DNA of 64,000 nucleotides from Spironucleus salmonicida (lineage: Eukaryota), in the NCBI RefSeq assembly GCF_000497125.1, contig NC_090600.1, forward strand, positions 1,137,197-1,201,196. Direction: 5' to 3'. This document shows, piece by piece, positions 7,276-62,968 of this stretch (within the stretch, counting starts at the first letter, position 1; the number at the start of each line of letters is the position of its first letter). The translations under genes and the position numbers were made by a program. The notes below the pieces were generated by a model. That model searched no databases. It was not told where the DNA came from and worked only from the letters and a program-made list of their open reading frames with translations.

Positions 7276-7708
7276 TTAGAGTGACAAAAATATAATATTT
7301 ACTTTACAATATAATTAACTAAAATAATTTCTAATAAGATAAGTTTAATAGATTAGTCATATGAATGTTGTTCGATAATTATTATGAAATAGTTAATACC
7401 ATTAGTGCTTATTTTGCTATTCTATGTAGGCTGTTTTATAAGTACTGTATAGTATAACGACAATGTTTAATAATAATTACCAGATATCTATAAATGTAAA
7501 TACATTAAACAAATTTACTAATCAACTACCTTATAAAATAAAAAAGTAGCACTATATATCTTAGTTGATTTTAAGGTGAGATTATTATATTTGGCTGTAT
7601 CAGTCATATAAGATTATAGTCAATTTTTGAGATAGAGTTATTTGTGGTGTAAACTATATATTCATCTCTGGGATATAAAATAAGTACTTATGAGACTTTT
7701 TGGTTACA

Positions 7709-7990
7709 TCACTGGATACTCTCTACTTGGTCTTAGAACAGCTCCTTGGTGAGGACCTCGACCTGCTCGAGAGTGATGTTGACTTTCATGGCGGCATCAC
7801 GTAACTTGATGAGCCGCTTCAGCTTCTGGTCCTTGAGGGTCTGCAGAACTGCCACAAAGGTTGCAGCCGATTCACCGTATTTACCAATGCAGCGCTCGTT
7901 GTACTTAATGTCTCGCACGAGCTCCACGAGCTCTGCCTATAGCACCGCCCACTATGCCTCCACCTGGTGCCGGAACTCTGCGTTCTGCAT
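7709..7990 (-). CDS. Small hypothetical protein (93 aa) in GC island
   Basis: MQNAEFRHQ...QDQVESIQ; C-rich TTCCCACTCCAAA before ATG, ends CAG TGA, strong GC3 bias. Confidence 0.65.
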
Positions 7991-8109
7991 TTTGGAGTGG
8001 GAATCTAGCAGAACCCAGAAACGTGCAAAGCATATTCTGCGGCAATAGTTACCTATGTGAGAACGAGCCCGGATACGCCTTAGGAGGGAATATTACTGCA
8101 TTCTTCAAA

Positions 8110-8307
8110 ATGCGGGTCAGCGCCCTCAAATACAGCCTCTCGGACCCCGCGATGATACGTAGTCCCGGACGTCCCGGACGTCCCAAGGCACCTGCAGCTG
8201 CGGTACCGGTGTAACCTGTGCTCCCACTGAGGGCCGCTCCCCGTAGGTCACGGAGGCTCACGAATACTCCAGACTTGGAGGCATCGCGGCCTAGAATGCT
8301 CTAGTGA
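8110..8307 (+). CDS. Small Pro/Arg-rich hypothetical protein (65 aa) in GC island
   Basis: MRVSALKY...RPRMLQ; AAAATG start context, ends TAG TGA. Confidence 0.45.
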
Positions 8308-8316
8308 CCGTGCATC

Positions 8317-8988
8317 TCACTCTTCGCGCAGCCGCGCCACGCAGTCATCAACGCCCAAAAGGTCGCCTGCACCCAGAATGCCCTCTAGACGGCGAAACAC
8401 GCGCTCCAGCACTGCGTTGTATCCCATATACACCTGATCATCAGCAAGCCTCCCAAGCTCCCCGTGAACCACCTATGCCACCTCACAGGCTAGTCTGAAC
8501 ACACAACCACAGAGGCTTGGGTGCATACCATCCAGACGGTGGGCTGAAAATCCAGTTAAGGGAGCAATCTTCTCGCCGCGCGGGTTGAAGCGCGGGTGCA
8601 CCTCCCCACGCAGGCTCTCAGTGTAGGCCTCCAACACAGAAGGTAACGGCGTACACTCCAGGAACAGCAGTTAATCTGGCTGCACCTCGTGTTGCAGCTT
8701 TATCCTAACCTGCCCCAGTCGGAAGAACTGTAGGACCATCTCATTCTATAGAAATTCCAGGTCAAGCCCCAGCACGCGTGAAACTACCGTGATCAGATGG
8801 ATAACAAAAGTTTATTTAACATTTCCTTATGATATACTTAATAATTTACTCAGTGATTCATTATTTAAGTTTAGTTCTAATTAAAATGATATTTTTTAAA
8901 TAATCAGGTATAATTATACAACTATTTTTATTATGGGATATTTCCTAAAATTATCCAACTTGCTATTTACTTAAATTATATATTACAT
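8317..8988 (-). CDS. Hypothetical protein; 3' part GC-rich, start uncertain (8988 or 8739)
   Basis: Open frame ...EMVLQFFRLGQ...DDCVARLREE with strong GC3 bias up to ~8800, ends GAG TGA. Confidence 0.55.
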
Positions 8989-10128: not shown

Positions 10129-11730
10129 ATGTTGTTCCTGGCATTTGCAAAATTACAACGCTATTGTGTCTATAGAGAACCATTAGATGTTAAACCATGT
10201 AAAGTAAATGCATTTAATGATAATATAGGAGTAATTTTGGATGTAGATTTAGAACTCAACTCAACAGGTTGGATGACTTTTAAGTCTAACTCAAACCCAG
10301 AATTACCTGCTAGATATCAATCATACTATGTTGGATACGCCGAAGGAAAACTTTTTCAACATCATATCTGGAATCATCATATGAATGTGAAAGATTGGTT
10401 TTTACATAGCTACTTACCATTCCCTGATTTTCCCGAAGAGCTTAATACATTCTTTAGATAAAATTTAGCATGGACTAGGTCAAATATAGGTAAGTTTGCT
10501 AGAGATAGATTCTGGAAAGAAGTTGGTAACACTATGTATCATTTTGATGGTATGGTTTTAGGGTACTAACAAGCATGTAGTAAGGCTGAATATATGTCAG
10601 AGTTAGATCTGTATATTTATGTTTCATCAGGAGATTTATTAGATGTCGTTGAATTTGCTCTCCCTACAATGAGACCTAATTGGAAAAATATGACTTAGGA
10701 AATGAAAGAGACCTGGGCGTAAATGAGAGATCACTGCTCTGGACTTGTTAGAGTTTCAAATGACACGATTTACCTTTCTTAGACTGCTTGGTTCTTCTAT
10801 GGTTCAATGACTCGTGTTTGGAAGGAATATGAGTTTAACTATTCTAGCTCTGCAGCCTCAAAGATATCATTTTCTTCTTATCCTGGATTTTCTTATTCCT
10901 TTGATGATTTTTATGCAACAGACTCTGGTATCATGTTCTTTGAAACAACTAACAATATATATAACACAGACCTATACAATTTATGTTCTCCTAAGTCAGT
11001 ATTGACCTGGATTCGTTCTTAAGTAGCCGGTAGAGCTGCTAAAACAGCCCCAGACTTTATCTAGCTTATTAGAAGATTCAATTCAGGAACTTACAATAAC
11101 CAATGGGTCGTCGTTGACCTCAACAAATTTAAGGAAAAAGCTGAAAAAGACGTAATGTGGGTTTTAGAACAAGTCCCAGGCAGAACAGCGGCCTATGATG
11201 GGACCGAACAACTGCTGAAGGACGGCTATTTTGGCAGTTTCAACATTCCAAGCTTAAAGAACGTAAGAAAAGTTTCAGGTTATGAACCAATGGCCGAGGC
11301 TGACCCCTCAGATGATTACGACGCCACGCCCAGAAACTTGATTTTCTAGCGCGATGCCCCGAAGGTCGATTCTTTGGAGAAAATGCAGCATTTGATGAGG
11401 TACAACGATTATTTGCACGACGCGCTTTCGCTGGATATGCAGGGAAATCCCGAACCGGGATTTGCAATTTCCAGCAGGTACGACCAGCGCCCTGGGGACC
11501 GCGCGAAATGCTTCGGCGGATTCGATAATAAAATTGGAATGTTCAACAGGAGGACAGGGGAATACCTAGCGTTGATCGTTTCGAGCCCTACGAACTAGAC
11601 AGAAAGCGCCCCGTTGTGGGCGTTCAAGGGCGACATGTATTGCCCCAGAAGAGGGCTTCCCGACGGGCCTTACAATTACCCAAGTATTACGGTTCCGCTA
11701 GAACTAAAGCTCAGGAAGCAGCCTGAATGA
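10129..11730 (+). CDS. Phospholipase B-like protein
   Basis: HCSGLV, FSSYPG..YSFDDFY, FETTNN, NSGTYNNQW, VLEQVPG, MRYNDY, ISSRYD. Confidence 0.93.
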
Positions 11731-11890
11731 TTTATTTTCCCTATTATCTTTTTTGTGTAAGAGAAGGTATTCAGTAGAAATACAAAAATAGATTAATTAT
11801 GTGTTGTTCAGGCCTTAAATTACGAAAAAATAGAAACAGTAATATTATGTATAATACTATGCAATATATTTCCCCACTTCAAATTTTACG

Positions 11891-17007: not shown

Positions 17008-18156
17008 ATGCAAATTTACACAAATCAGGCACCCGCGTAAGAGCTTTTAACATAAATAGCGCAAGTTGATACTACGCCTATTAAAAATCTTACATAATTG
17101 CTCACTGCACACTACCAAAAAATTATTCCAGAGCAAATTTCAGAGAAATTTATTATCAACGAAAAATCAAAATCTGAATAGTACACCCTACTCGGAACTG
17201 AGATTATTAAACAGGGAAAAGTGGCCCTGCTCATAATGGCAGGAGGTGCAGCAACGCGCCTCGGTGCGAGCTGCCCAAAAGGAGCATTCCCGCTCAACAA
17301 CTCCTGCCTCTTCGAAATCATCATCAAAAACGCAATCCGCATCGGATCGCCTGACATCATCATCCTGCTGAGCCGCGCAACCGCCGACACCGAGAAATTT
17401 TTCAAACAGAACGACTTCTTCAAATACAACCAAAATAAGCTCACATTCGTCTACCAGGCAGAGTACCCCGTGGTAACCCCAACAGGCGAAATCCTCGCGC
17501 TAGAGCACCAGATCCTGCAGTCGCCGAACGGAAACGCTGGCTTCCTCCCGGCGCTCGCTGCCGTAAATCTGCGCAACTACGAGTTCCTGCACGTTATCGG
17601 CGTTGACAACCCATTCGTGAAGCCCCTTGAGGCCGAGATGCTCGGATTTGCGATCTAGCGTGATTTGGACGTCGTTAATCGCGTGATAAGGCCGAAAAGG
17701 AACGAAAAAGTTGGCATTTGCGGTTTCAAGCGGAATGACTGCAGGTGGCAGTCGCAGATCGTCGATTTGAGTCAAGTTTTGCCCGAAATCGCGCCCACGG
17801 TTTTCGAGTACTCGGAGGTCAACTTCGACGAAATCGACCTCGCAAACAGCTTCGGGAGCATCGCAAATCACCTATTTTCGACGCGCATCCTGCTCAAAAT
17901 TCAGGAAATTCAGCAGGTCGGAATGGCGGTTCCCTTCCATTTGGCCATCAAAAAAGTTTCGTTTTTCGACTTTTAGGAGCGGAAAATTGTCGTTCCAGAG
18001 CGAGAAAATGCTGTCAAATTTGAGCACTTCATTTTTGACTACTTCCACTTCTGCGAAGTTGCGAAATTTGGCGTTTTTGAATGCTCCAGAGACGAATTTC
18101 AGCCTTTGAAGGAAGTTGGGGATATTGAAGGAATTTTGGAGAGATTGATGGAGTGA
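17008..18156 (+). CDS. UAP1: UDP-N-acetylglucosamine pyrophosphorylase
   Basis: KVALLIMAGGAATRLG..CPKG, SPNGNAG, GVDNP, EYSE, KFEHFIFD. Confidence 0.93.
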
Positions 18157-23869: not shown

Positions 23870-24714
23870 ATGTTAGTAGTCTCCGGTTCGAGGCCTCGAA
23901 AAGGCTCCAGAAACCAGTTTCTCGATAACCAGTTTGATCTTTATTCGGTATACACCTCGAATCCCATTCTTAAGTTTAGCGCGAAAAAGAGTTTCCAGAA
24001 CAGGCTGGGCCGAAAGTATAATTTGTGATTTCCAATTATGTATTATCGTGTTCTCCCTCCAGATTATCCACATCCACTTCCAGAAATGTTATTAAAGTTC
24101 CACCACTAGCGTTCCATCGCGATCGCTTGCATCCGCGCTAACTGTATTGACTACCGGTTTATCAGGCGGATATTCTTCCTCAAGTCCAACAAGTACATCG
24201 ACACCCAGCTACAGGCTGCCGTGGAGCGATCGGAGATCCTGTAGTTCGCCATGACCATCCTCCAAAGCAATCTGGATGAGCAGCATCGCAATGTATGCAC
24301 CAACATGCTGCGGCAACTTACGCAATCCACCACCCGTCTCGGCTATGATGCGGTGCGAGAGTATGTCCTACTCGAGTGAGATTTTAGCCCCTCCACTAAA
24401 TGGACCTTGGGCTCTACCCGCCATTCTACCAGCTATAGCCCCAGGTACTCGACCGCCAGCTGCAGTTCTGGGTTCAGCGCATCCAGTCGCACCTTGTAGA
24501 TACCGGAACACACTTCCTATCCCTCAAAGAGTTTCGACCACCTCTATTTCACTTTCAGCCGGAGTTCGACTTAGTCAACCGCATTCTTTGCATCTTCTCA
24601 GATGCTGGGCAGCTCGAAAAAGTGGATACCACACTATTCAGGGTATTCGTCGAGTCTCCAGTCGTGGTGATCCGGCGCAACCTCGAGGTCGGCCTGATCA
24701 GCTCCGTCGACGAG
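23870..24714 (+). repeat. Inverted repeat arm A (845 bp, GC-rich)
   Basis: Reverse complement of 28803-29647; ORF-track translations identical across both arms. Confidence 0.97.
24086..24379 (+). CDS. Small hypothetical protein (97 aa), copy in arm A
   Basis: MLLKFHHQRS...REYVLLE; C-rich upstream motif, ends GAG TGA, GC3-biased. Confidence 0.65.
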
Positions 24715-24882
24715 CTCAAAGAAAAACTCAACACCTTTTTAAAAATCTAAAATAGAATTTATGCTACCAACTATATATTTTTACATGATATTATATACTG
24801 CTTTTAATTTTGTAACTTACTAAATTAAATATACTATAATTATAAATATTATTGCTACCGCTCCAAATTAAATGTCCGTTGA
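24400..24882 (+). pseudogene. VPS25: Truncated/chimeric Vps25 copy (first ~105 codons plus unrelated AT-rich tail)
   Basis: Matches the 28656-29117 gene up to the arm end, then loses the Vps25-like C-terminus. Confidence 0.65.
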
Positions 24883-25240
24883 GAAACTTTTAAAAACACA
24901 ATAAGAACTGACTGACCAGATTCAACATACTAAATCATAAATTAAGAACTTTGATGAGAAGATATCTGCACTTAAACTAGAATAACTGACATCTACTGCA
25001 AATTTAGAAGGATTTTAGTAATAACTAGTAGAAGCTAAAATTAGCGAAGAACAACTGAACTAATAGTTGCAATAGATAACACAAGAAGTGAACCATCAAA
25101 AGGAAAGAATCGAATCGTAGAAAAAATATGCTGAGAATAAAGTTGTTTAATAGTAGTATCTAGAGGAGAAATCAGTTTAAGATAAGCTTGAAACACAGAT
25201 ATTAGAACTAATTGAGTAGAAATAAGCAAGGATGGATTGA
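24872..25240 (+). CDS. Coiled-coil hypothetical protein (122 aa)
   Basis: MSVEKLLKTQQELTDQ... Q/E/K-rich heptads; C-rich upstream motif. Confidence 0.7.
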
Positions 25241-26172
25241 AAAATGGTTATTTTATCTTTATCTATTTTATGATTATTCACAATCATTTTATTAAAAGTA
25301 TTAAATATGTAAACTCATTCATTTAATATAATAGAACCTAATAAAAGATCACTCACTGTTTTAACTTAAAAGTTTATGAAGAATTAAGAATTTCTTTCTT
25401 AATATTTAATGATGGATTGACTTTGTTCTTTTTAAGTTAAACCCTATCACCCACATAATTATCCACTTATATAAATTCATTGTCTAAGGGTTGTGCTTTA
25501 TTTTTCTTGATACAATTGGACATTTAAAGGAAATATGATATATTCTTCATACAATATATTATTAATATCATAAAATTACTAAGTTTTTAGTTTTTTATAT
25601 TATTAAATAGTTTCCTGAAAGGATATGAGTACAAATTACATTATACATCCACTTATTATAAAATAGACATTATATAGTTAACAATAATAAATTTAATATT
25701 AGTTGCCTTCCTTCTATTATACCTGCAATATGATACTTTTAATTAGGTTCTAGTACATTTATTATCGAATATGTATATAGTATAATTGGAATAATTAATT
25801 CTATTCCACAGGCAATAGTTAAATATATAGAAATTCTATATAGTGTTTATCTAAGGATCACATTACAATATTCAAATTAATAATAAACTGTTACCTATAA
25901 ATACATTATTTATATAAATTAATATAATTTTACACTATTAATGTGATGGTTTTAGTGTTCATACTCATTAAAATAACATCTAGTAACATAATTACTGTAT
26001 CGAAAAATAGTTACTATATATAGATGATAAAATATTTAAATAAGTAGGCTAAGTTGTGAATGTATTATTCAATTCAAACTTCTAATAAAATGCTTTACAG
26101 CATCAAATTAAAAATAAAACATATTGGATAATTTTAGATATATTTAAAAGAATAAATATAAAAACTACTCTA

Positions 26173-26928
26173 TCAGGATTCTGTCTCCTCTTCAGTTGAC
26201 TATTACCAGTCAGTCATACCTACTACCTCCTCGATACTACCTTCCAATTCATCGACTAAAATGATATTATGGATTTATTTTTAATCAGTAAAATAATTGA
26301 AGATCTCTGGAAATTCATCTAAATCAATGCCTTCAGATAGTAAATTATCATCAATATATTGATTAAAGATTTAGTAATTAGGCTGAAATCCGTTCTCTGC
26401 CAAATATGTAAATAATTTGATAGACTGTACGATCTAATTAATTTGTAGCTCATCGAAAATTTCATTTTTAATATGAATTTTTACTTCTTTTTTTGGTGGT
26501 AAAACTTCTTTTTGTTTAAACTGTAAGCTTGGCTTCTGAAATGGATTTTTAATTATAATGGATATAATATCACCTACTACCTTTGGAGCAATCGGAAATG
26601 AAAGAAACTAGAAAAACTGTAGTAAAGTTTCAGTAGAAACAAAATGAAACACTGACTACATGAAGCTTTAAAAAATCGTTTCCTCTATCACAAAAATATG
26701 TTCCGGATCCAATTAATCATATAGTTTTTAAATCTCGTAATTCATTTTTTTATAATCACGAAGGGCAGTAGAGGCCTTAAAGGTTGTTTCGGTGTTTGAA
26801 CGTGATAATGGTTACGCTTGGGTCTAGAGTGGAATAATTGCTTATAATTTATATTATATCGTAGATTGTTAATTTGGTTCTTATTAAAGTGCATTATCAA
26901 CTATAAACGGAGGTGAGCCGCAACCCAT
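26173..26928 (-). CDS. Hypothetical protein with N-terminal MGC acylation motif (251 aa)
   Basis: MGCGSPP...EEETES fully read in table 6. Confidence 0.7.
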
Positions 26929-28655
26929 TTTAAGTATATATAAGTTAATAATATCATAATGTATATTTACTTTTAGATGTATTCACAATTTTATTTTTTC
27001 TTACATCAAACATAATATGAAAAAAATAACAACAAAACCTATTAAATATATTGTGACTGTTTATATTATGAAGTTTGAATCTTTAATAGATGAATCTGTC
27101 TAAAGTTGTATTAATGTCGAAACATTGTTAACAGATAATATATATTCAGACTAATTTGACATTAGTCTAATAAAGTCCTTTGATTCGATTATAATCTGAT
27201 TATTTAGTTAATATTAATAGCTACTAAAATATTCAGAAACTGCTATATTGTTTATATAATTTTGAAGCTTTATTTAAACCAATACATTTCTTTCAAAATT
27301 TGTAAAATTCAAATAGAGCTTTTAATTTAATAAAAAGAAACTTTAAATATGAAATGTAATAACAGAACCCTATAATTGAATTACTTTTTTTTCTTAGACA
27401 GAATTATCTAAGTTTTAAAATTGTAAAATTAATAAAGGATTAAAATAACTATTTAATGTAATTTTGGTATTAATAAATGTTGGAATATCTTTTACATGAT
27501 ATGATTTAACAAAAATATTGAAGCTATTAATTTAAAAAATTAGAAACATTTCTTTAGAAAGATAGGGATTGTTAGTCAAGCTGCTATTCAATTCGATTTT
27601 AAGAAGTATATTTTTGTTACTTACAAATATTTAAGCTTAAGTAATAATATTTGAAACATGTGTACCAGTAGTTAATATATTATTGAATTAATGAGAATAA
27701 TATTTTGAACTAACTTAATCATAGAATATCATTTATATTTAGGAGACTGATGATCCTATTAACTATTACGTCCTGAAATTACAAAAAATATCATTATAAC
27801 AACATTTGAATAACTAGATATTATTATGTAAAAAATGTTAATTAATTGTGGCACTACAGATTTAGTCTCTCAAAGGTGCCTCTGCATATTTTTCTGTCAG
27901 TAGACTAGATCTTGTATTATTCCAAACCCAATCTATTTTTGGTGTATTAACGAAAAAAGTTTTCATAAATTCTGGACATGTTTAAGGAAACATTTATATA
28001 TAGAATGATCTTATTCCATTAATTGGGGATAAAAGGAATTATTTAATTTGCAAACAGTCTTATATTAGAAACGGTATGACTTAGATTTTTTAAATAAATT
28101 AGGTTTCTTTGTAAAATCCTGTATCAAATGTAAGACTCAATTAAACATTCTTCTATATATACACGTCGAAACTTAATTACAATTTTGTATTCTATTAAAA
28201 ATGTGCATATGTGCTAGTAATGTTAATATCGTCAAATGATAATGTCACTATAAATTTAGTGATACTTTAACATTACAAGCTATTTTAATTAATAATGATA
28301 TCAATTGTCGAAAATTTTGATTATTATACTGACTTAAAGGCAGATAACTAAATAAAACAGAAATTAGCTAGTTAATACATTTTACACTTTACTAATATTA
28401 TATAGTAATACATAAAATTTATTCATTAGACAAATAATGTCAATTAAGAATATTTTGATGAATGAAAAAAGTTATAAATAGGTTAAGATCGACTAAACAA
28501 TACAGTTCTATATCATTAATAGTTAATTAAAGTTACTTTTAAAATATGAAGTATTTCAACAAAATTTTATGATCGTATAGAAAGAACTTATCAGGGAAGC
28601 TAACTATTTGTTAATAGTCAAAGAGATAAATTATATAGAAAATATATCAGCCTTC

Positions 28656-29117
28656 TCATCCTAACTTTACACCATCTACACGGCCTAATTTATCCCGTGA
28701 GCATTTCCACTATTTTTATGCTTCCCCTTATTCTAGTAGTTCATAGAATCGATTTTCATTAACAAATTCTCTAAGCTAGGTTTACTATAGTTTTTCTTTT
28801 ATCTCGTCGACGGAGCTGATCAGGCCGACCTCGAGGTTGCGCCGGATCACCACGACTGGAGACTCGACGAATACCCTGAATAGTGTGGTATCCACTTTTT
28901 CGAGCTGCCCAGCATCTGAGAAGATGCAAAGAATGCGGTTGACTAAGTCGAACTCCGGCTGAAAGTGAAATAGAGGTGGTCGAAACTCTTTGAGGGATAG
29001 GAAGTGTGTTCCGGTATCTACAAGGTGCGACTGGATGCGCTGAACCCAGAACTGCAGCTGGCGGTCGAGTACCTGGGGCTATAGCTGGTAGAATGGCGGG
29101 TAGAGCCCAAGGTCCAT
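28656..29117 (-). CDS. VPS25: ESCRT-II subunit Vps25 (153 aa)
   Basis: YPPFYQLQP...RQLQFW resembles Vps25 FPPFFTLQP...QL..W; also PPLF, GQLEKVD and C-terminal DGVKLG (cf. GVKFF). Confidence 0.8.
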
Positions 29118-29647
29118 TTAGTGGAGGGGCTAAAATCTCACTCGAGTAGGACATACTCTCGCACCGCATCATAGCCGAGACGGGTGGTGGATTGCGTAAG
29201 TTGCCGCAGCATGTTGGTGCATACATTGCGATGCTGCTCATCCAGATTGCTTTGGAGGATGGTCATGGCGAACTACAGGATCTCCGATCGCTCCACGGCA
29301 GCCTGTAGCTGGGTGTCGATGTACTTGTTGGACTTGAGGAAGAATATCCGCCTGATAAACCGGTAGTCAATACAGTTAGCGCGGATGCAAGCGATCGCGA
29401 TGGAACGCTAGTGGTGGAACTTTAATAACATTTCTGGAAGTGGATGTGGATAATCTGGAGGGAGAACACGATAATACATAATTGGAAATCACAAATTATA
29501 CTTTCGGCCCAGCCTGTTCTGGAAACTCTTTTTCGCGCTAAACTTAAGAATGGGATTCGAGGTGTATACCGAATAAAGATCAAACTGGTTATCGAGAAAC
29601 TGGTTTCTGGAGCCTTTTCGAGGCCTCGAACCGGAGACTACTAACAT
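28803..29647 (-). repeat. Inverted repeat arm B (845 bp, GC-rich)
   Basis: Reverse complement of 23870-24714. Confidence 0.97.
29138..29431 (-). CDS. Small hypothetical protein (97 aa), copy in arm B
   Basis: Same sequence as 24086-24379. Confidence 0.65.
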
Positions 29648-29941: not shown

Positions 29942-31714
<1,773 letters not shown>

Positions 31715-34740: not shown

Positions 34741-35655
34741 TCACACTAATTTTTCTGGTATTTCTGTCTGATCAAAACATGCAGTTAACTAATCTGATAA
34801 ACTAATTACATTTGTCTCCACTACACCTGCCTTAGTTTTTTAACGTTTTTTATGCAGTATCTTGAAAACTATAGTTCCGATACAAATAATTATTAATATA
34901 ATCCCTATAACTAATGCAATTACCCATTTTTAATCAGTGGGAATTACTGGAAATATCGGAATTACTGGAGGATCTTCTTAATCTTCTTACGATTCTTCAT
35001 CTTTCCATTTTGATGGCCAGCACATTTAACCTATAATTGCATAGTCTTTTGAACATACAGTACATTTACCAAATGCATCTTTTACAGTATTTGGTAAACA
35101 TGTTTCGCAACTTTTGCCATCTGAACTACAAGACGCACAATTAACAGCATCTTCACACTTACATTCAGAAGTAAGACCTTCGACACATTTAGTAGGAGTG
35201 CCATCTTTACAATAGTAATTATTTTCCATATTCGCACAGCTATCTATACACTCCCCGTTAAGTTTTGTGATATAGGGTTTTTCACATTCATAGCAAAAAG
35301 TTTCAGACTCACAATGAGTGCAATTATCCTTACAGTAATTGCATGTATTAGTAGTTAAATCACAGTACCCACGTGTTACTTCTGCACAATCTTCACGTTT
35401 ATGACAAAGTATGGTACAAGTTTTCGTGGATGGTTTCACAATAAGACCTTCTATACATTTAACACATTTGCCATTTTCACATTACTCACATTCATTTACT
35501 TATTTGTTATCTGTACAATAACATCCTTGGCCTAAATAGATTTGATCAGAACATGGTTAACAGTTAACAGTTTAATTGCTGATTGCAGGGCAGTAGTAGC
35601 CAGCCTTGCAAGTCTTAGTGACGATTGAGCAGGTACCTGATACTGAACTCAACAT
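34741..35655 (-). CDS. Cysteine-rich membrane protein (CxxC-rich, C-terminal TM)
   Basis: Many CxxC/CxC motifs, TM IALVIGIILIIICIGTIVF followed by KILHKKR. Confidence 0.9.
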
Positions 35656-35659
35656 TTTC

Positions 35660-35678
35660 TATATATATATATATATAT
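35660..35678. repeat. (TA)n microsatellite
   Basis: About 9 TA units, 4 bp upstream of the cysteine-rich gene ATG. Confidence 0.9.
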
Positions 35679-36510
35679 CAAACACATAATTATAATATTG
35701 TTGAGTTTCTGGAAATTGGTAATAATAGCTATATTACAAAACCAATACTGAATTATAGTTTAAAAAAATATATGATATGATTTGAAAAATCATAACAGTT
35801 TACGGTTTTGAATTTATTAACAATGATTCTATTTTAATACTATTATTAATAGTAATACTTATCTTAATCGAAATAGTTAAGACCTTTAAATTTAAATTTT
35901 ATTTAACATTTTTAGCCTTATTAATTATGTTAAAGAGTAAAGTCATTAAAATAATTTAATCTCGTAATACTTAATATTTATCATAAATAATTCATTTGAA
36001 GTATAAAATCACAATATCTAAGTACTAACTAATAATAGAGAATTTGTATCTATAATTACGTTAACCATAATTAGTAGATAATCAGAACCTTCTACAAACA
36101 GGCAGGAGTTATACGTATGTTCTATTACTATATCATTTTATATAAATCACGGCATTTGTCTCCCAACATTCAGATTAATACTATAAGCAATAGCATTTAG
36201 CGTTTAACTATCTAAGCACACTATATTTATTTTTAATGGAATTATCCTACTATCTCTTACTAGTCCCTTATGTTTCACATATTCACTATAATAGTGAAAA
36301 ATAAAAACGCTGTGGAATACCCACATGCAATAAGTTTAACTTCATAATATTCTATAATTGCTATTTATATTCATTTCCCTAGCACAAGAGCTAATAATTT
36401 ATTATTGTACTAAGTTTCAGTCTTATTTTCAAATAATTATAGAAGGACATCCACTTCAAATATCAAAACTAATCTTATAATATTCTAAACTATTAGTATG
36501 TTTCCAAAAA

Positions 36511-40416: not shown

Positions 40417-40564
40417 TTTTCTGATTTTAATTCCCACAACGATTTACTACTACACAATCGACACACTAAACTCCAATTTCTTTTTTCGCAAGTGACTTAA
40501 TCTGTTCCTAAATTATTAATATTATATACTAAATAATAAGTTATCTCATTCCGCATTTCACAAT

Positions 40565-43500
40565 ATGAGTGACGGTTTGCCATACGCCCCTGTTTCACCA
40601 ACAGAGCGTCGCAGACGCGCACAAGAGCTTCTAGCCCGTCATGCACGAGCATGGGATGCTCAACTTGCAACTTTTACGACGCAGCAGCCGAAGAATTCAC
40701 AGCACCACTCGAACCTCCAAGTTGACGCCGAATGGCGTGAAAAGTAACGTGCCCTCGCCCGTGCTGACGCTAATTCACGTGCACAGTATGAAATTTCATG
40801 GCAAAATTCGCTTAGAACTAACGAGCGCGTTGTGGAGCTCAAGCTTGGCAAGGTCAACCCGGTATCGTTCTTCAGGAAGGACACGAACAACTTAGCCATA
40901 AACAACATCCTATAGATGCCAGCCTACGTCCCAATCAGTGAGAAGTTGCCACATGACCTGCTACAGAAAAATTACGACTCGCTACAGAACCACCTCCAAC
41001 AAATCGAATGCCCAGAAGACACAGACGAGATCGAACTTCCTCTACAAAATTCTCCTTCCTCAGAAGAAGAGGAAAGTGAAATTCAGCAAGAAAATGAGTA
41101 GCAGAACGTGCAAGTCGTGAAGAATAAATTCTAGTCCATGATTCCTGCAGGTGCGAATGCCTAAAAAGCTGATGAAATCGCCCGAAAAATTACCAAAAAT
41201 AGCAACAAAGTCAAGGTTTAAAGGATGGATTTAAATAAAATTAATAAATAAGCGATTATTGAACCTTTGGATAGCATTTAAACACATATTAGGCCAAGAG
41301 TTTTAATCAGTAATTTGACGGTGATTTCAAGTGAAAATACACAAGATTCTAATTTGAAAATGAAGAATATTGGTGATTGTAGTTTTATGATATAAATAAA
41401 GCAGAGAAATTAAATAACGTAGAACGCCAAAAAAGAAATAATTAGGAAAGAAGTAAACGATGAGTCTACCGCTGGTCCTAGTATGAACGATATTGACGCT
41501 GTTAGTTAAAGACCCAGTTAAGTAGCTCCTGGGTCACCAGCTTCAATTTTAGGGAAGCTTAAGACAGCCAAGTTCACTTCAAACACATAATAATTCAATA
41601 TTACGAAAAAACCAATTATTCAAGCTCCTACTGAATCTGTAGGCAGTGGCCAGAAAGAGAATTAGATATAACGCGATGATATGGCATAGAAAATGTTAGA
41701 GAAGTCCTCAACTCCTTCCCACTTAAGAATTCTCGCTAATAGATGTGTTTAGAATTCTAGAGGTGAGATGGAATCAAAAATAATTGTGGCCACCAAAGGA
41801 GCTAAATGGCTTTGTGGTTCTGGAGAAAGTAGCAATATTGAGTTTATAGTTCCAAATAATAAGTAATAATAACCTGGTATTATTTTATAGGAGTATGAGT
41901 TAGTTTTTGTACCTGCTGTTGAAGTTGAATTTGAAAATAGAGATGATCAGAAAAGTGGGTAAAACAGTGTTATATAGACAGAAGGAAGTACTAGTGTATT
42001 TATCAGATGCTATGGTATTTAGAGCTGGTGTTTATAGCTTAAAAAATAAATTGAAACTTTAAATAATATAGGATAAGGTGTAGTAGAGAAGATATATAAC
42101 CAGAATGTATGCTAAGAAATTCTTTATAGTCTCAGCGATGAAAGCGTGAATATTTCAATCCATAAGAACAAGGAAGTTCTAGAAAAAGAAGATATTGCTT
42201 AAAGCATTAAAAAGAAAATTGAGAGTACTGTTATTTAAACTTATTAAAATAAGGTTGTTAAGGCTAAGTGGCTTATTGATAAAGAAATTATTAAACAATT
42301 TTTATATGATCTTATTACAGAAGAATCAGGGTATAACATGTCAGTGTTAGATATTTTTGATAATTACTACGACTTCGATGCACATACTAGATTTGAAGAG
42401 GTGGGCAATGAAGTTTTTGAGTTTTTAGACTCTATTGATACGACATAAGTTCAAGCCTATCCTTTCATCTATTTATAATTTGCTAAAAATAGTATCTTTA
42501 TCAACAGAGCTAAATCTCTTAGCAAAGTTATTTTAAAGCATTAATACCTATTTTAGAATATAGAAATATTTGATAAGTTCCGTATAAATTCATGTTAAAT
42601 AGTTAGAAAGCGACTTTTGGCATTAATTTCAGATGAAAATGCTGAAAAAAATATAATTATAAACCAAACTAGTGATTCAGAGATGTATTTAATGCAAAAG
42701 GCTACACGTGGAACCATTATAAATGCTGCCCTTTTTTCTGAGTTTAAACCTAGTAAAATCGTCAACTTGTTAATTAACAAATTAGTAAATGAAATTACAC
42801 TTTCTGTAAATAAATAAGTTAAATTTGATAAAACTAAGTAGTATTCAGTCAATGAGCAATAATAAATTTTTGCAAACAAGCGACCAATTTATGATGGTAA
42901 TTTGATTAATTTGTTGTATTTAACTGCTGCTGTAAGTAATAAGAAACCAGTGTGGGATATTTTTAATATACTGAATAAAGTATAAGATGAAACTTTAGAA
43001 GAGAGGAAATTATAGCTTTTAGAACTCTTAATGTTAAAAAGCATTATATTTGATGTTGAAATTTAGGTTAATTCTGAATCTGATAATACAATCAGGTCAA
43101 TTATTGGTAAAGCTGTAAACTAGAAAATTATTGATTAAAAACTTATTGTAGAGTAACAGTACGATTTTATGGTTGATAATACAAAATTATTTGTTCCAAA
43201 ATATACAATTGAGCAACTCAATAATCTTATTCAACTGATAAAGGCTAATTCTACACTTGATAATGAGCAGTTCCTAGAAAAGTTCACAGTGGAAGAGATT
43301 AGTTTAACAATAGTACCTGATTTGGTGTTTTTATTAACCAGAGAATTCTTATATAGTCAAACAATGAAGCATCGTGTATTTTTAAAATTATATTATTTAG
43401 AAACGGCTAATATAAATGATATGGATCCATTTAATATACTTACACTGGCTGAAAAGATTATATTAACATAAAACTTAAATTTCACTACTCAAAACTTTGC

Positions 43501-47646: not shown

Positions 47647-48540
47647 TCATTCCCCTGTAACTCTTTTATATCCAAATGTACTATTTCTGATAAAATAGAT
47701 TAATAGTCCTGCAGTGACCAAAACTCCAGCCCCAGCTCCCAAAAGTATTCCATATTTTAAATGCTCATCATTAACACATTTATATTCGTCCCCAACCACT
47801 TAACAAACATATCCATTATTACAGTCACCTATATTACCACATTCCGCCTTAAGACAGTTACCATTAACCCCAGCTCTCCAACCAGGTCTACACTCACAGT
47901 AATTATCAGGATCTTATGAATCATTATAACAGCGAACACACATTTTTTCGTAACTTATGAAGTTATTACCTCTACAGTCACAATTCTAATATTTTTCATC
48001 AGTACATTTACCTTATCCATTACATTTCCCATGTAACCCATCACATCCTCCTTTTATACAAGAGAATCCGCCTTCATATTGCTCTTACTTAAATGTATAT
48101 TTTGGACAGAAACAATCCTTATTTTCGTCCCCATTGCATTACTCCAAACAGTAAATTTATCCACTTTAATCAATTCCACAAGGACCATTGATACAAGATG
48201 CAGGGCATGTTAGACAGTGCTTACTATTATCTTCAAAAACATAGCCATCACATTTACCACAAAGTGCGCCATAGAATCCATTTTTACATATACAACCATT
48301 TGCAAAAGTCGAACCAAATTAGTCCAGACAAGTTTTATTATTTAGGCTTTCATTACACTCCACACAAGTTCCAGAATCATTACAGTCAGCATTTTTCTTA
48401 CAGAAATATTTTCTGCAGATTCTGCCATTTTGGTAATTTTCTCGATTGTAGCCTTACGGACATGTGCATGATTAATCAATACAAAATGACTGTGCTCCAG
48501 CTGGCTCTATACAGTTTTTATCAGTTTTACAAATGTTCAT
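47647..48540 (-). CDS. Cysteine-rich membrane protein
   Basis: CxC/CxxC-rich, TM YGILLGAGAGVLVTAGLLIYFI with short tail GYKRVTGE. Confidence 0.88.
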
Positions 48541-49054
48541 TAGGTGTTAAAATAAAAAAGCAAGCAGTTATTTATGAGATATAATAATAATTTTAATATA
48601 TTAGCAATTGTATAATAATTGGGAGTGAAAAATGTATTTAATACTATATAATAATAAATAAATTATTAAGTCATAAGATTTAATATAATATACAAAACTG
48701 GAAGAGTAATTTTTTAAGATTAAAGATTTCACAAATATAATTGCGGATATTTAAGAATATGTAAATAAACTATTATTAGTTAATAATGAATAACGGCCTA
48801 CCATTATTTTGTGATTTTCTATCTAAATAATGATCGTATATCAACATATCTGGAAAATACTTACAAAATCAACTTAAATAAATTTAAAAATGATCTTTTA
48901 TAGGTAATAAACTTTATCAATATAACTTTTTTGAATATATTAATTATCATATGTTGTTGAAAAATCGCATTTATCAAAAAGGATTAAAAATAATGAATAC
49001 TTCCTTATCTTATTCTACACAAATAAGGAATATACATAAATATCCTCTCTCCAA

Positions 49055-55717: not shown

Positions 55718-57091
55718 ATGCAGATCCCTGTGTCCCATATAAACTCGTCACTAGTGCCTGCAAAATCAGATGTATACTCTAGATAACTAGCTAAGTAGCA
55801 ATAAGCTAGAATCAAAGAGTAATAGTAAAGAGAACATCTTAAATAGACAAAACTCTAATAAGAAATGTTAGAAGTTACAGGAAAACCAAGAATCAACTAA
55901 AATTTATCTGTTAACAAGCCTTTTAACTAACGTTAAAAATAATATGAAGAACACAGCAAGAAAAAATATTAAATTCTTAACGAAATTCAAAAATAACAGC
56001 AATAAAAGCTCACATTCAACCCAAAATTGAATCCAGCTAGCTTATACCTAGCTGAAACGCGTAGAGCACTAGATATATAGGCATCAATGCTTAAAACTAG
56101 CAATCTACAAGCCATAGAGGATACACACTATCCAGAAATCACAGAATATGCAGCATCGCTCAAACGAGAGGGGAATATCTACGATAAACTATCTTAACCT
56201 CGAGTTAAACCAGGAGAACTCTTGATCGAAAGTGCGTCGTTATCCGAATATGCGGTCAAGCCTAATAAACAAGAATAGATTCTCCATGCTGAAAAGATGC
56301 ATAGCGAATATAGCCGGTTCCTAGTTAAACGCGAAGTGTTGAAGGAATAATTTGACCGCGAAATGATAGGCACATGTGAAGAAATGGATGTTGAGCGTAA
56401 AGTGCGTAGAGACGTTTTAGCATACAAGGCTAAAATTCGTGAAATTTAGTAGTAAGGATCTGAAAAACAACAAGAGGCCGAAAATTATACTTTTAGACCT
56501 GAAATCAATTAGATTTCAAAACTTTTGACTTAAGAATAAGCAGATTTTAATGAGCGCTATTATGATGAAATCGAGTAACTCAAGAACCGGCAGATAATAA
56601 ATCAGAAGAAGAAAGAGCTACAAGAATTTGAAGTATTTTCTTTCTCCCCAGTAACTAATACGAAGAACAAGCACTCCGATCCGGATCAGTCGCAAATCGA
56701 ATTCTTCGAGCGCTAGGAAAAGCTCATAGAAAAGAAGAAGAACTAATAAACAGAGAGGGATAACCTACGTCGACTATAAGAAAATCGTGAGATTCAGTAC
56801 GTCCAGCAAAACTGTAACAAATCACACACGACTAAAGTTCCACAAATTGTGAAGTGCAATCTACTCGCCTTGGATCAGGACGACAGAGACAATTTAGCGA
56901 CATAGCTGCTAGATTTTGATAATCTTCCCGAAGATCAGAGGAGGAAGACCCAGAGACAGCTCCAACTTGGTGGTGGTGTGCCACTTACTACAGCCTACCT
57001 GATGGACAGCATTGCGAGCCACAGCGAGCGTGTTAAGCGAGCAAGAGAGGATAGGTTGAATTTATAAAACAAGCTTAAGCTTAGGGAGTGA
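55718..57091 (+). CDS. Coiled-coil protein with TFxPxIN-type motifs
   Basis: TGKPRIN, TFNPK, YTFRPEIN, FSFSPVTN; ends GAG TGA. Confidence 0.75.
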
Positions 57092-57102
57092 ATTTTACAT
57101 AA

Positions 57103-58221
57103 TCACTTTAGACCGCTGTAGTTTCGGATATTTGGAAGACCAATTAACTGGCTGCTCCTGATTGGAGACGATACCTTTCTTACTGGGCTTCGAATTCTTG
57201 ATGCTGCCGCTCTTTTGACGACTTTTGGCTTTATAACCTCATCGCTCGTCTAGCTTTCTCGCTTGTGTAGTTAGTCTTGTCTTTGCTAAATATTCCAATG
57301 TCTGCCTTCTTGGATGCATAGATATTACTATTGCCCTCCTAACACTGCACCTGGCCTAACTAATCGCAGCCATGCTATCGCTTCACGGGCAGTAAATTTG
57401 TACTGTTGCATCAATAGAAGCCCAATCATTGTTCCAGTGCGTCCAAGTCCAACTCTGCAGTGTACTGCCACTCTAGGTTCTTAATAGCAAATTTTAAGAA
57501 ATTTTTCAACAATTTCATCCGAAGGATTTGAACCGTCAGGATATGGTAAATCATAATGATGAATTCCATTTCTAACAAACTCAACTTTGTTGTACAAAGA
57601 CTCATTCAGGCGGACAATTGCAGTAACATTTAGAGATTTTAATTCCTTTATTGCTTGTTACGGTGTGAACGGCCATGTGCTAAAAAGTGGAGACGATTCG
57701 GAAATAGGAGAAGGTAGTGCAAATATTTTGTTTGGAATCACAATAGAAATTAGCCCATTCTCTTTAGTGTAATATTATCTGAACAATTCTATATTAAAAA
57801 GCTACAAATTGAACACTTTTTGTGTTAGAGCTCTATGAAGTGCCCATAATAAATCTTCACACAGAAGCTAATAGTGAGATATACCCGGTGTTGCATCTCT
57901 AAAACCTATAGGCTATAAAGTGTTTGTGATGCCAATAACTTGATTTATATCTACTCCTGAAAAAAGTGAATAAGCACCTGCAAAAAATACAGAATTAGCA
58001 ATAGCAATATCAGTTTTTGGTGTTATCAAATTAAATTTTTGTTTAATATTCAGGGTTTATAGTAAAAAGTCCACTAGATCTGGTAATATAAAAGGTCCAA
58101 TATACTCTGGTAAATTTTCTGCTTTGTACAGTGTTACTGGACATATTGAGTTTCCTTAGGGTATACTTTGGTCCTCCATTACACTGAATATAAGATTTGG
58201 TGGAAACTATACATCGCCCAT
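57103..58221 (-). CDS. CDC14: Cdc14-family dual-specificity phosphatase
   Basis: FRDA, VRLN..LY, DL.YPDGS.P, VAVHCRVGLGRTG, AIAWLRLVRPG. Confidence 0.92.
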
Positions 58222-59990: not shown

Positions 59991-62968
59991 ATAGCAAGAA
60001 CCCATACACAAAGTCGACTATCACCACCAAAAGAACTTAGAACGATAGCTTACTGCCAATTCTTTCGAAAACAGAAGGCTTTTTTCGAATTCTACTCTGA
60101 ATCAGTCGGCAATTCTGGAGGCCCGAATAGAAGATTTTCTGTGAGATATATCATTACTCAATCAATTTTGCTGCTAAATACGTCATCCTACAAGGATGAG
60201 GTCTGCGTTGGCTCGAAATTTTGTTCCATCTTCTCGTATTCTCTTTCGATTCCCTCTATGTCAATTTGCTTACCCTGGCTGGACTGAATCTCGAACATCG
60301 TCTGCATGAAGTTCATCCTTTCGTGCAGTTCGACCAACTTTTGATCGATGTGGCTCCCGTTGAGCTTCTCTGCCTGCAAATCGCGCTCAATTTTGCGGAT
60401 ATCCGGCTTGAATTGCGATACATTCAGCTCTAGTGACCTAATGCGGTCTTCTGTGTTTATTAGGCTGTCGGCCAACTGTTGAATTGAGTTCTGCAGTTGC
60501 GAGTTTGCCAAAGAGTCTGGCATCTCAAAATTGCTGATATTAAGACTCGTTTCATGCATCTTTTCTGCGATAATATGGACCTGCTGTTTTAGCATGTCTA
60601 TCTAGCACGGATCTGAGGTTTACTGAATTTAGAACTGATTCTGCTCAAGCTGGTCAATAATACTTTGAATTTCTGAAAGCTGGCACTTAATTAAAGCAAT
60701 CTCTTAAGCTTGATGCTGGGCCTATTATTAGAGCTATTCCTAGTTGGACGCAATTATTTCGAAATTTTCAAGTTTTTCTTATAGCTGAGTGATGTTTACT
60801 TGAATTGCATTTATTTAATCCTAGTTAATCGTTAATTCAGAATTTTATAAATCTTAAACTGGCAATGATTCAATATATTAATTATTGAACTTATCTTCAA
60901 CTACAGATGCTGTAATAGGTAAATTATTGACTTAAATATCATGCTTTAGTTTATCAATTTAATTCATCATAAATGCTATACTTTCTTAGATTAATTTTTC
61001 GATATTATTGGCATCTCTAACTTCGCTATTCAGCATTTGTTTTGATAAATCTTCATCAAATTATTAAATTTTATCTTAAATTAAATCAATTTATTTTTAA
61101 ACCTCTTAAAATATTAATATTAAATCGTTATTATGTGTCTGGTTTTCTTTTAGTAGCAGTATATCATCTTATTACTATGATAAAATAGAATGAATTTATT
61201 CAACATCTTGAATTTCCTCTTATTCCTTATTATTTATTGTACTATTAAATTTGTCCTCTAAAAGTTGAAGTTTATTATTAATCTCATCTTTCTCTGTTTA
61301 ATTTTCTGACTCAATCACTTTGCAATTGATTTTATCTAAATTTTCTAAAATGATAGGAATAGCATTTGTTTTATTAACCAATTCTGAATAATCCTATTTT
61401 GTAATATTAAAAGAGTTACTTTTAGGTAAGGATTTAATTTCCATAGTAACAACTTCTAAGCTTTCAATCCTGACCTTATTTTCATTAATTATACCTAAAG
61501 ATCTGTTATATTATTCTTAAATTTCTATTATATTTCTAGCTAATTAATCTTTTTCTTCAGTTAAAGTTATTAACTATGTAAATATAACATCATTATCCTA
61601 TTAACTATTTAATGAATCCAATAATTTACTCTTGAGAAGCTGTTTTCCTTAAATTTATTCAATACTATTATTAATCTCTATAATTTAGGTTTGAATAGTA
61701 TTTATTTTAAAATTAAGCTCTTCTGATAAATTAAAAAGATTATTAATTTAATCATCTTCCTTAAGTTTATCTTCATTTTCTCCTTTAATAATAGTTTTTG
61801 AGAATACAGTATTTCCCATTTCTTCATAATCTTATTAAAGCTATTCAATTTGGGGAATTATTTCCTCTAATAACATTTCTTTAATTTAATCTAAATCATT
61901 ATTTGGCTCTACTTTTTTCTATTAATTCAGAAGTAATATAACATTTGCTGTTTCCATTTTAACAGCATCAGATGTTAGCGTAACTTCTTATAACTACTGC
62001 TCAGTCTGTTATTACATTTCAATAATACTAGCTTAGTCTTATTTTATTCTTTAAATATCGTCATTAAAATTGGTTTTATATAAATCTTATGATTATTAAA
62101 GTAATAAAATCTTCTGATTAATTTGACTAATCATTGTAAAATATTTCTAGTTAGCATTATTGCTATCATTTTATTATAGCTTCAATAACTCTGATCCCTA
62201 TTCTATAATTTTATCTTTTTATTTTCTTATAATCTCTACAAGTCTATCTTATTTTTTCTCTAATTGAATCAATCTATCATCATATGATTATTTTAATCCA
62301 TCCTATTTATTTTATATAATATGTAAATCAGTATACCTTTTAGTAGTAGAATCCTTGAATAAATTAAAATCAACTTAATATCTATTCTGATTTATTTTTT
62401 CAACTTCGTATACTTTTTAGTTTTACTATAGAATCTTTTTCATTATTTTCAGTTTTCCATTCATAGATATAAGTCGCTTAGAAAGAAGAGTATTAGTATT
62501 TTCAAGTTTAATATAGTCTTACGCATTAGGATTAACCTAGTTTTATCTTTAATATTAAATTTAATTTTCTAAAATAGATAATCGTCTTAAAATTTCACCA
62601 TTATTTTATTGCATATTACTTTATGAAATTTCTTATTTAGGATGAAGAATAGAATTAATTAATGATGCTCTTTGTGCCTGTGATTCTAATAATGCCTCTT
62701 AAACCTAAGGATCTAACTATGGAGTTTTCTTGATATTGTAAATATTTTCGTTAGGATTAAGTTATTCAATAGAACTGGCTATAAAAGATTTTAGATAATC
62801 ATTTTAATTTCTTTCAGAATGCTTTAATGCCTATTCAACCAACTTTCCCGCTGGAGAACTATGATCAAACATATCTATATGATTTAGATTAGGAGTTTAA
62901 TTTTTAGTTTTTATTGGCTTTTTAGGCTGCTAAATGGTAGTTCTTTATACTGATTTGGATTTCTACAT
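59984..62968 (-). CDS. Large coiled-coil protein (~994 aa)
   Basis: Q/E/I-rich heptads; includes track ORF 60188-60595 in frame; ends CAG TGA. Confidence 0.8.

Follow-up and report, generated by a model that had tools for sequence, protein, structure and literature searches.

A GC-rich inverted duplication of host genes in Spironucleus salmonicida whose steps in base composition coincide with the inner limits of homology: a candidate case of GC-biased gene conversion

Inverted segmental duplications of host genes are a known kind of genomic structure. In the palindromes of primate X chromosomes, the arms are richer in guanine plus cytosine (GC) than the flanks, and this enrichment has been attributed to GC-biased gene conversion (Jackson et al., 2021, PMC8981503). 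The diplomonad Giardia muris has been reported to carry identical pairs of VSP genes, arranged head-to-head or tail-to-tail, with coding spacers between the copies (PMC7641422). Spironucleus salmonicida has been described as possessing a compact, AT-rich genome with few or no introns, in which TGA is the only stop codon and in which sharp local shifts to high GC occur (PMC1805757). These shifts, as well as genes in which the GC content of synonymous third codon positions (GC3s) is near 1, have been reported as unexplained (PMC1805757, PMC2874811); in the 2007 account, mutation and selection are said not to account readily for the GC patches and for the genes with a third-position GC content (GC3) near 1 (PMC1805757). 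According to a 2022 report, the duplicated regions of S. salmonicida average 44.7% GC compared to 30.7% elsewhere, and gene conversion has been suggested to occur around the genes for cysteine-rich proteins (PMC9509377). Here we analyze an inverted repeat with perfectly identical, GC-rich arms that is located in a 64-kb stretch of the S. salmonicida genome (64,000 nucleotides, positions 1,137,197 to 1,201,196 of the forward strand of contig NC_090600.1, RefSeq assembly GCF_000497125.1), hereinafter the window, within which all coordinates are given.

Base-by-base comparison of arm 1 (23870-24714, plus strand) with the reverse complement of arm 2 (28803-29647, minus strand) yields an uninterrupted run of 845 identities in 845 positions. 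On the inner side, this perfect run is followed by a mismatch, a match, another mismatch and 11 matches, after which the similarity ends; the degenerate inner edges of arm 1 (24715-24728, plus strand) and arm 2 (28789-28802, minus strand) accordingly agree at 12 of 14 positions, and both mismatches have C in arm 1 and A in arm 2. The homology as a whole spans 859 bp, with 857 identical positions (99.767% in a blastn comparison of the window with itself, 100% as printed by the repeat search), and it is because of these 14 additional inner bases that both the repeat search and blastn report a length of 859 nt. Beyond the outer ends of the arms, base-by-base comparison detects no match. The spacer measures 4088 bp between the perfect arms and 4060 bp between the 859-nt arms. 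The arm pair is the sole repeat of at least 60 nt in the window, and a sensitive self-comparison by blastn recovers, besides this pair, nothing but a short AT palindrome of 24 bp (2492-2515); no sub-repeats were found within the arm. A chance origin of the match between the arms is excluded. With arms that are more than 99% identical, inverted and arranged around a single-copy spacer, the structure has the layout of a palindrome or inverted segmental duplication.

The base composition of the arms differs sharply from that of their surroundings: 50.1% GC in the arms versus 24.1% in the spacer, 26.3% in the 3 kb to the left, 29.4% in the 3 kb to the right and 29.3% in the window as a whole, which corresponds to an excess over the local background of roughly 175-220 G or C bases per arm. 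The original prediction, made from the bare sequence of the window, had noted identical arms at these positions, with roughly 50% GC against about 25% in the flanks and with host-type genes in place of a transposase, and on the identity, the composition and the lack of a transposase it was accurate (the gene content is considered below). To locate the compositional change, the GC content of the 50 bp before each position of the 64 kb was compared with that of the 50 bp after it. The steepest two steps of the entire window are found at 24716 and 28805, which is 1-2 bp away from where the perfect arms end on their inner side. At the four arm edges, the GC fraction changes from 0.30 to 0.50, from 0.66 to 0.24, from 0.22 to 0.66 and from 0.50 to 0.24.

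The step at the inner end of arm 2 falls in the middle of a gene. An open reading frame (ORF) of 153 codons (28656-29117, minus strand) has its codons 1-105 in arm 2, including the start, and its codons 106-153 in the spacer, so that the frame continues for 48 codons beyond the arm and then ends with TGA; the degenerate inner edge of arm 2 lies inside this ORF. In arm 1, these 105 codons are followed instead by 55 AT-rich, unrelated codons, yielding a truncated, chimeric copy (24400-24882, plus strand). Within the full-length gene, GC3 drops from 0.69 in codons 1-105 (0.72 if only codons 56-105 are counted) to 0.23 in codons 106-153. The choice of glutamine codons follows the same boundary, with eight CAG and one TAG inside the arm, whereas all six glutamine codons outside the arm are TAA or TAG. 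Because the step is located mid-gene, it is attributable neither to codon selection linked to expression nor to the transfer of a whole gene, given that both of these act on whole genes; a process bounded by the extent of homology accounts for it. The arms employ the code of the host, with one in-frame TAG among the 105 codons and two in the 97-codon gene that is entirely contained in each arm, and with TGA at the ends of the ORFs; they are therefore native sequence and not foreign DNA.

With moderate confidence, we interpret the locus as a native, tail-to-tail inverted segmental duplication that is kept identical by GC-biased gene conversion. Under this interpretation, a segment of about 859 bp, consisting of some 216 bp of upstream sequence, the whole 97-codon gene and the first 105 codons of the 153-codon gene, would have been duplicated, and the two copies would have come to flank the present 4.1 kb of unrelated genes. 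The copies would serve as mutual templates in homologous repair, with non-crossover repair, that is, gene conversion, erasing the differences over 845 bp, and with the last 14 bp of the homology escaping conversion and beginning to diverge. If the repair of mismatches in the heteroduplex favoured G and C, many rounds of it would lift the arms from the local 24-29% to 50% GC, and the enrichment would halt where pairing halts. Resolution of the same events as crossovers would invert the spacer.

The degenerate inner edge is relevant for this scheme in two ways. Both differences in the 859 bp fall within the last 14 bp, for which p is ~2.7e-4 if divergence is uniform, and an in-register match at 12 of 14 positions has p ~3e-5 by chance. 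Given the latter figure, the homology truly extends to 859 bp, with an interior that has been made uniform and an edge that has not. The edge pattern was examined after the data had been seen and is, therefore, supporting rather than decisive. The claim of the original prediction that the arms are held identical by conversion between them thus gains partial and indirect support, namely from the GC enrichment ending together with the identity, from the confinement of the differences to the edge, and from the published GC-rich duplicates of this species. From this combination we infer that conversion is probably ongoing and biased towards GC; the structure may also be long-lived, as the original prediction proposed.

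Inversion of the spacer by crossover between the arms is mechanistically plausible. The arms being identical, each orientation would contain the 153-codon gene once in full and once truncated, so that inversion would be close to neutral with respect to coding; both isomers would also have the same 530 bp upstream of the start of this gene. The original prediction held that a flip would switch the arm that is joined to the C-terminal part of the gene, which it labelled Vps25. The sequences outside the arms would indeed exchange partners in this manner, but the encoded proteins would remain unchanged.

Several observations weigh against the interpretation of the locus as a product of sustained, GC-biased conversion. 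The steps at the outer edges of the arms are softer than those at the inner edges (0.20 and 0.26, with 4% and 1%, respectively, of the positions in the window showing steps as large); in its outer part, the arm is non-coding and contains less GC. No decayed homology is detectable past the 14 bp or past the outer ends, the observed local-alignment scores being reached by between 46 and 376 of 500 shuffles, and hence there is no independent sign of great age. Perfect identity is also expected from a very recent duplication or from polishing of the assembly in a repeat-blind manner. Furthermore, the amino acid composition is not shifted inside the arm, the combined fraction of G, A, R and P being 0.18 inside and 0.19 outside.

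A further opposing observation is that the window contains seven other GC islands (7629-8858, 10994-11816, 17086-18126, 40482-41196, 56047-56432, 56644-57550 and 60094-60633), along with smaller ones. These islands are 0.4-1.2 kb long, contain 41-52% GC compared to the mean of 29%, and in some cases have sharp edges (steps of 0.38 at 8801 and 40571), and none of them has a second copy in the window according to either the repeat search or the self-comparison by blastn. The island at 17086-18126 is located in the gene for UDP-GlcNAc pyrophosphorylase, in which GC3 calculated by 50-codon blocks rises from 0.2-0.3 to 0.6-0.76, and the one at 10994-11816 in a phospholipase B gene, in which the blocks reach 0.5-0.7. 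The pyrophosphorylase shows no close paralogue among the 20 database matches listed (the best besides itself are 47% and 43% identical), in a search that unannotated partial copies would escape. This genome can thus form GC islands for which no partner is visible in the window, and later copying of one such island could have given rise to the arms. Either the islands possess unannotated or allelic partners, or this genome produces GC islands by another route. Several islands cover only part of a conserved gene, namely the 3' part of the phospholipase B gene, the middle and 3' part of the pyrophosphorylase gene, and the 5' end of a 1743-codon ORF; inside these genes, GC3 leaps from about 0.25 to 0.6-0.76.

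The most serious competing explanation is a single, recent inverted duplication of a pre-existing GC island, through either inversion by staggered breaks with fill-in or a template switch during replication, both of which are possible routes; the arms would then be identical due to their youth, without ongoing conversion. The perfect identity over 845 bp and the lack of decayed homology beyond the arms fit this scenario, the partnerless and partly sharp-edged islands of 0.4-1.2 kb elsewhere in the window show that an island could have come first, and the retention of the gene continuation by one arm only is what an inversion with duplication at one breakpoint predicts. However, the parental island would have to end within 1-2 bp of a breakpoint that itself lies mid-ORF, and for a young copy that diverges uniformly, the confinement of both differences to the last 14 bp is improbable, with the same value of ~2.7e-4. 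Microhomology at the junction does not explain the edge pattern because the mismatches are situated between the perfect run and the 11-bp match, and a junction formed in this way leaves them unaccounted for. Since the end of the island must coincide with the breakpoint and the edge pattern still calls for an explanation, we rate a recent duplication below conversion and regard it as rather unlikely, although a genuine contender. An artefact of assembly or polishing, whereby a single real arm was duplicated or two similar arms were rendered identical by reads that map to both, is improbable. Repeat-blind polishing can yield exact identity of an 845-bp repeat, but each of the four junctions is unique sequence, two of the 14 bases differ between the inner edges, the spacer consists of 4.1 kb of single-copy genes, and the sequence resides on a contig of 1.73 Mb; moreover, one arm is joined in frame to the remainder of the 153-codon ORF, which is unexpected from a false duplication.

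The formal layout of the locus, with long terminal inverted repeats around a few genes, is also that of a mobile element, and the 5.8 kb could in principle have moved as a unit, as a foldback or composite element or a remnant thereof with terminal inverted repeats of 845 bp. We consider this very improbable: the sequence to the left ends in ...GAAGCTC and that to the right begins with ATAATAA..., without a direct repeat that would represent a target-site duplication; no transposase, integrase or recombinase domain was detected with Pfam (E up to 0.1) in the eight ORFs of the arms and spacer that were scanned; there is no further copy of the unit in the 64 kb, and the two arm proteins are each reported from one contig only; and an ORF crosses in frame from arm into spacer, in arms that use the host code with TAG for glutamine. 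The least probable explanation, with hardly any weight in our assessment, is a programmed invertible switch, with the gene products depending on how the spacer is oriented. Perfect inverted homology over 845 bp would be a good substrate for inversion, and the truncated and full-length forms of one gene do occupy the two inner junctions. Yet the same two products result from each orientation, because the arms are identical; the scan of ORFs within the unit and in its vicinity revealed no recombinase domain; at 845 bp, the repeats consist of gene sequence and are unlike short recombination sites; and nothing marks the genes of the spacer as requiring a switch.

The position-specific GC content of codons supports the existence of two co-oriented genes in each arm, both of which read towards the spacer. 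The gene content given in the original prediction, a 97-codon ORF, the 5' part of Vps25 and the 5' part of a 60-codon ORF, was right in part. The 97-codon ORF (hereinafter gene A) is complete and identical in both arms (24086-24379, plus strand, and 29138-29431, minus strand), ends with TGA and contains two in-frame TAG codons for glutamine. The protein database lists its product as a predicted protein (P0022). Within the 113-codon frame that starts at an upstream ATG, GC3 is 0.71 from codon 17 onwards. Gene A is an orphan: the protein search with the 97-aa or 113-aa product returned only the protein itself, the Pfam scan gave nothing better than E 0.096, and the structural neighbours in the ESM Atlas are unconvincing, the Atlas model having a predicted local distance difference test (pLDDT) value of 0.47. 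GC bias was entertained as a cause of the orphan status of an arm-encoded protein and was dropped in view of the lack of a shift in amino acid composition inside the arm. The predicted 60-codon ORF was not found; instead, the outer edge holds only a 52-codon ORF (23870-24028, plus strand, in arm 1; 29489-29647, minus strand, in arm 2) whose ATG begins at the very first base of the arm and which is contained in the arm in full. This ORF shares a frame with gene A, and its TGA, followed by three codons, precedes the upstream ATG of that gene. A read-through product of the two (170 aa, with X at the stop) was also considered and matched 0 Pfam families. The presence of an RNA gene in the arms was ruled out, there being 0 Rfam matches in the window at the gathering thresholds and 0 tRNA genes predicted by ARAGORN.

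The 153-codon ORF starts 20 bp past the end of gene A, and it was the full-length form from arm 2 (P0001), not the chimera from arm 1, that the protein database search returned. The presence of 105 of its codons in the arms agrees with the original prediction, and the Vps25 label attached to it is tentative. The ESCRT-II profile of Pfam (PF05871) matches the 153-aa protein at 13.0 bits (E 0.13) and the arm 1 form at 13.7 bits (E 0.077), both below the gathering cut-off of 27 bits, and the match is confined to residues 6-51, which correspond to profile positions 4-54. A phmmer search against 1.84 billion representative sequences found only the protein itself; a word-indexed search, in which one of 12 candidates qualified, gave the same outcome; and the four weak matches among PDB sequences at E up to 10 include no Vps25 chain. 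By contrast to these sequence searches, the model of the 153-aa protein in the ESM Atlas (pLDDT 0.74; predicted template modelling score, pTM, 0.54) is structurally closest to a Vps25 cluster, with a template modelling (TM) score of 0.65 over 141 aligned residues in the range 4-153, followed by other winged-helix families with TM scores of 0.40-0.54; a single-sequence AlphaFold2 model had a pLDDT of 39 and was unusable. The alignment with the Vps25 cluster indicates that the 48 residues encoded outside the arm belong to the same predicted fold as the arm-encoded part. The protein is thus tentatively designated Vps25-like, by predicted fold only. The structural likeness between Vps25 and the N-terminus of CHMP7 has been remarked upon (PMC8394649), and the protein may instead resemble the latter or be another protein with tandem winged-helix domains. 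A supplement to the same study lists one S. salmonicida VPS25 with a clear match to the ESCRT-II domain (PMC8394649); because the Pfam score obtained here is weak, the 153-aa protein may be a different and more divergent one. For annotation, the implication is that one of the two copies of this gene is a truncated chimera.

The spacer (24715-28802; 4088 bp, 24.1% GC, single copy) contains an ORF with a predicted coiled coil (24872-25240, plus strand), a doubtful 309-codon ORF (25270-26199, plus strand), a 251-codon ORF (26173-26928, minus strand) and a 476-codon ORF (26983-28413, minus strand), none of which has a Pfam domain at the family cut-off.

The immediate neighbour of arm 2 on the right is the gene for arginyl-tRNA synthetase (29942-31714, minus strand), which is an uninterrupted ORF of 590 codons under genetic code 6 (TAA and TAG read as glutamine). 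This gene fixes the genetic code and marks the locus as part of an ordinary host chromosome. The standard code and the bacterial code were rejected because only short, broken ORFs result from them, whereas code 6 yields long, uninterrupted genes. Under code 6, with TGA as the sole stop codon, the genes in the window are long, intronless and tightly packed on both strands, with the largest ORFs reaching 1743 codons; apart from the phospholipase B and the UDP-GlcNAc pyrophosphorylase, they encode an Arf GTPase, kinases, transporters and ankyrin proteins, among others. Among the matches listed for the pyrophosphorylase, the best from a named organism belongs to Hexamita inflata (43% identity), which points to a diplomonad and not to a ciliate, as the code on its own could suggest. 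The code, compactness, AT-richness and GC shifts of the window agree with those published for S. salmonicida. Two further ORFs (34741-35946 and 47647-48804, both on the minus strand) are cysteine-rich, show numerous CxxC-like spacings and have a hydrophobic stretch close to the C-terminus; Pfam gives no match for either and, by eye, they look like the cysteine-rich membrane proteins of diplomonads. The short palindrome at 2492-2515, mentioned above, is perfect, consists of A and T only, and is located about 25 bp upstream of the ATG (2541) of a 720-codon ORF.

What makes this locus interesting is less the palindrome as such than the agreement, at the level of single bases, between composition and homology, from which the GC patches of this group of genomes could be explained in a testable manner. 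The locus displays both partners together with both limits of their homology, and at the inner limits the composition changes within 1-2 bp. As a broader and distinctly more tentative proposal, the long-unexplained GC patches of Spironucleus-type genomes might be produced by strongly GC-biased conversion between repeats. The present locus would then be a natural experiment resolved to the base pair, in which the GC-rich state (GC3 ~0.7 compared to ~0.23) was written only as far as the copies pair, with ~175-220 changes from AT to GC fixed in concert in each arm; the unrepeated islands nearby would then have partners elsewhere in the genome or between alleles and nuclei. If the coincidence of composition and homology held genome-wide, GC-biased conversion could be tested directly and cheaply as the origin of the patches, and the strength of the bias could be measured in a lineage without a known sexual cycle. 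No paper that joins biased gene conversion with Spironucleus was found in the full-text literature searched, which did not extend to paywalled journals and part of PubMed Central.

Among the described systems, the GC patches and GC-rich duplicated regions of S. salmonicida itself are one counterpart of this locus, with which they share the compact, AT-rich genomic background, the reading of TAA and TAG as glutamine, the sharp shifts to high GC, the very high GC3 and the GC-rich duplicates. The duplicates in the published survey were, however, defined by a length of at least 2 kb at 95% identity (PMC9509377), a threshold below which the 845-bp pair falls, and the cited accounts, in the parts pertinent here, describe no coincidence, at the level of single bases, between GC steps and the limits of homology. 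The Giardia muris gene pairs are likewise identical inverted copies in a diplomonad, with other coding or truncated genes between them, and recombination or conversion has been invoked for them as well. Unlike those pairs, the genes duplicated here do not encode cysteine-rich surface proteins, and one of them is included in the repeat only in part, hence the truncated copy.

Further parallels exist in organelles and in sex chromosomes. The large inverted repeats of plastids extend over tens of kb, carry rRNA genes and belong to multi-copy, circular organelle genomes. They resemble the present locus in being identical copies that are held alike by copy correction and in flanking a segment that flips, giving two isomers with unchanged coding content, whereas the locus described here is nuclear and small. 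The primate sex-chromosome palindromes, to judge from the account cited at the outset, combine several of the same elements: near-identical inverted arms with genes, a unique spacer, arms that are GC-richer than the flanks, and conversion as the proposed homogenizing process. The core evidence in primates is conservation across species, in contrast to the sequence of one genome that is considered here. The arms of primate palindromes measure tens of kb or more, compared to arms of 0.85 kb around a 4-kb spacer in an AT-rich protist, but the GC contrast is far larger in the latter, with 50% in the arms against 24-29% in the surrounding sequence.

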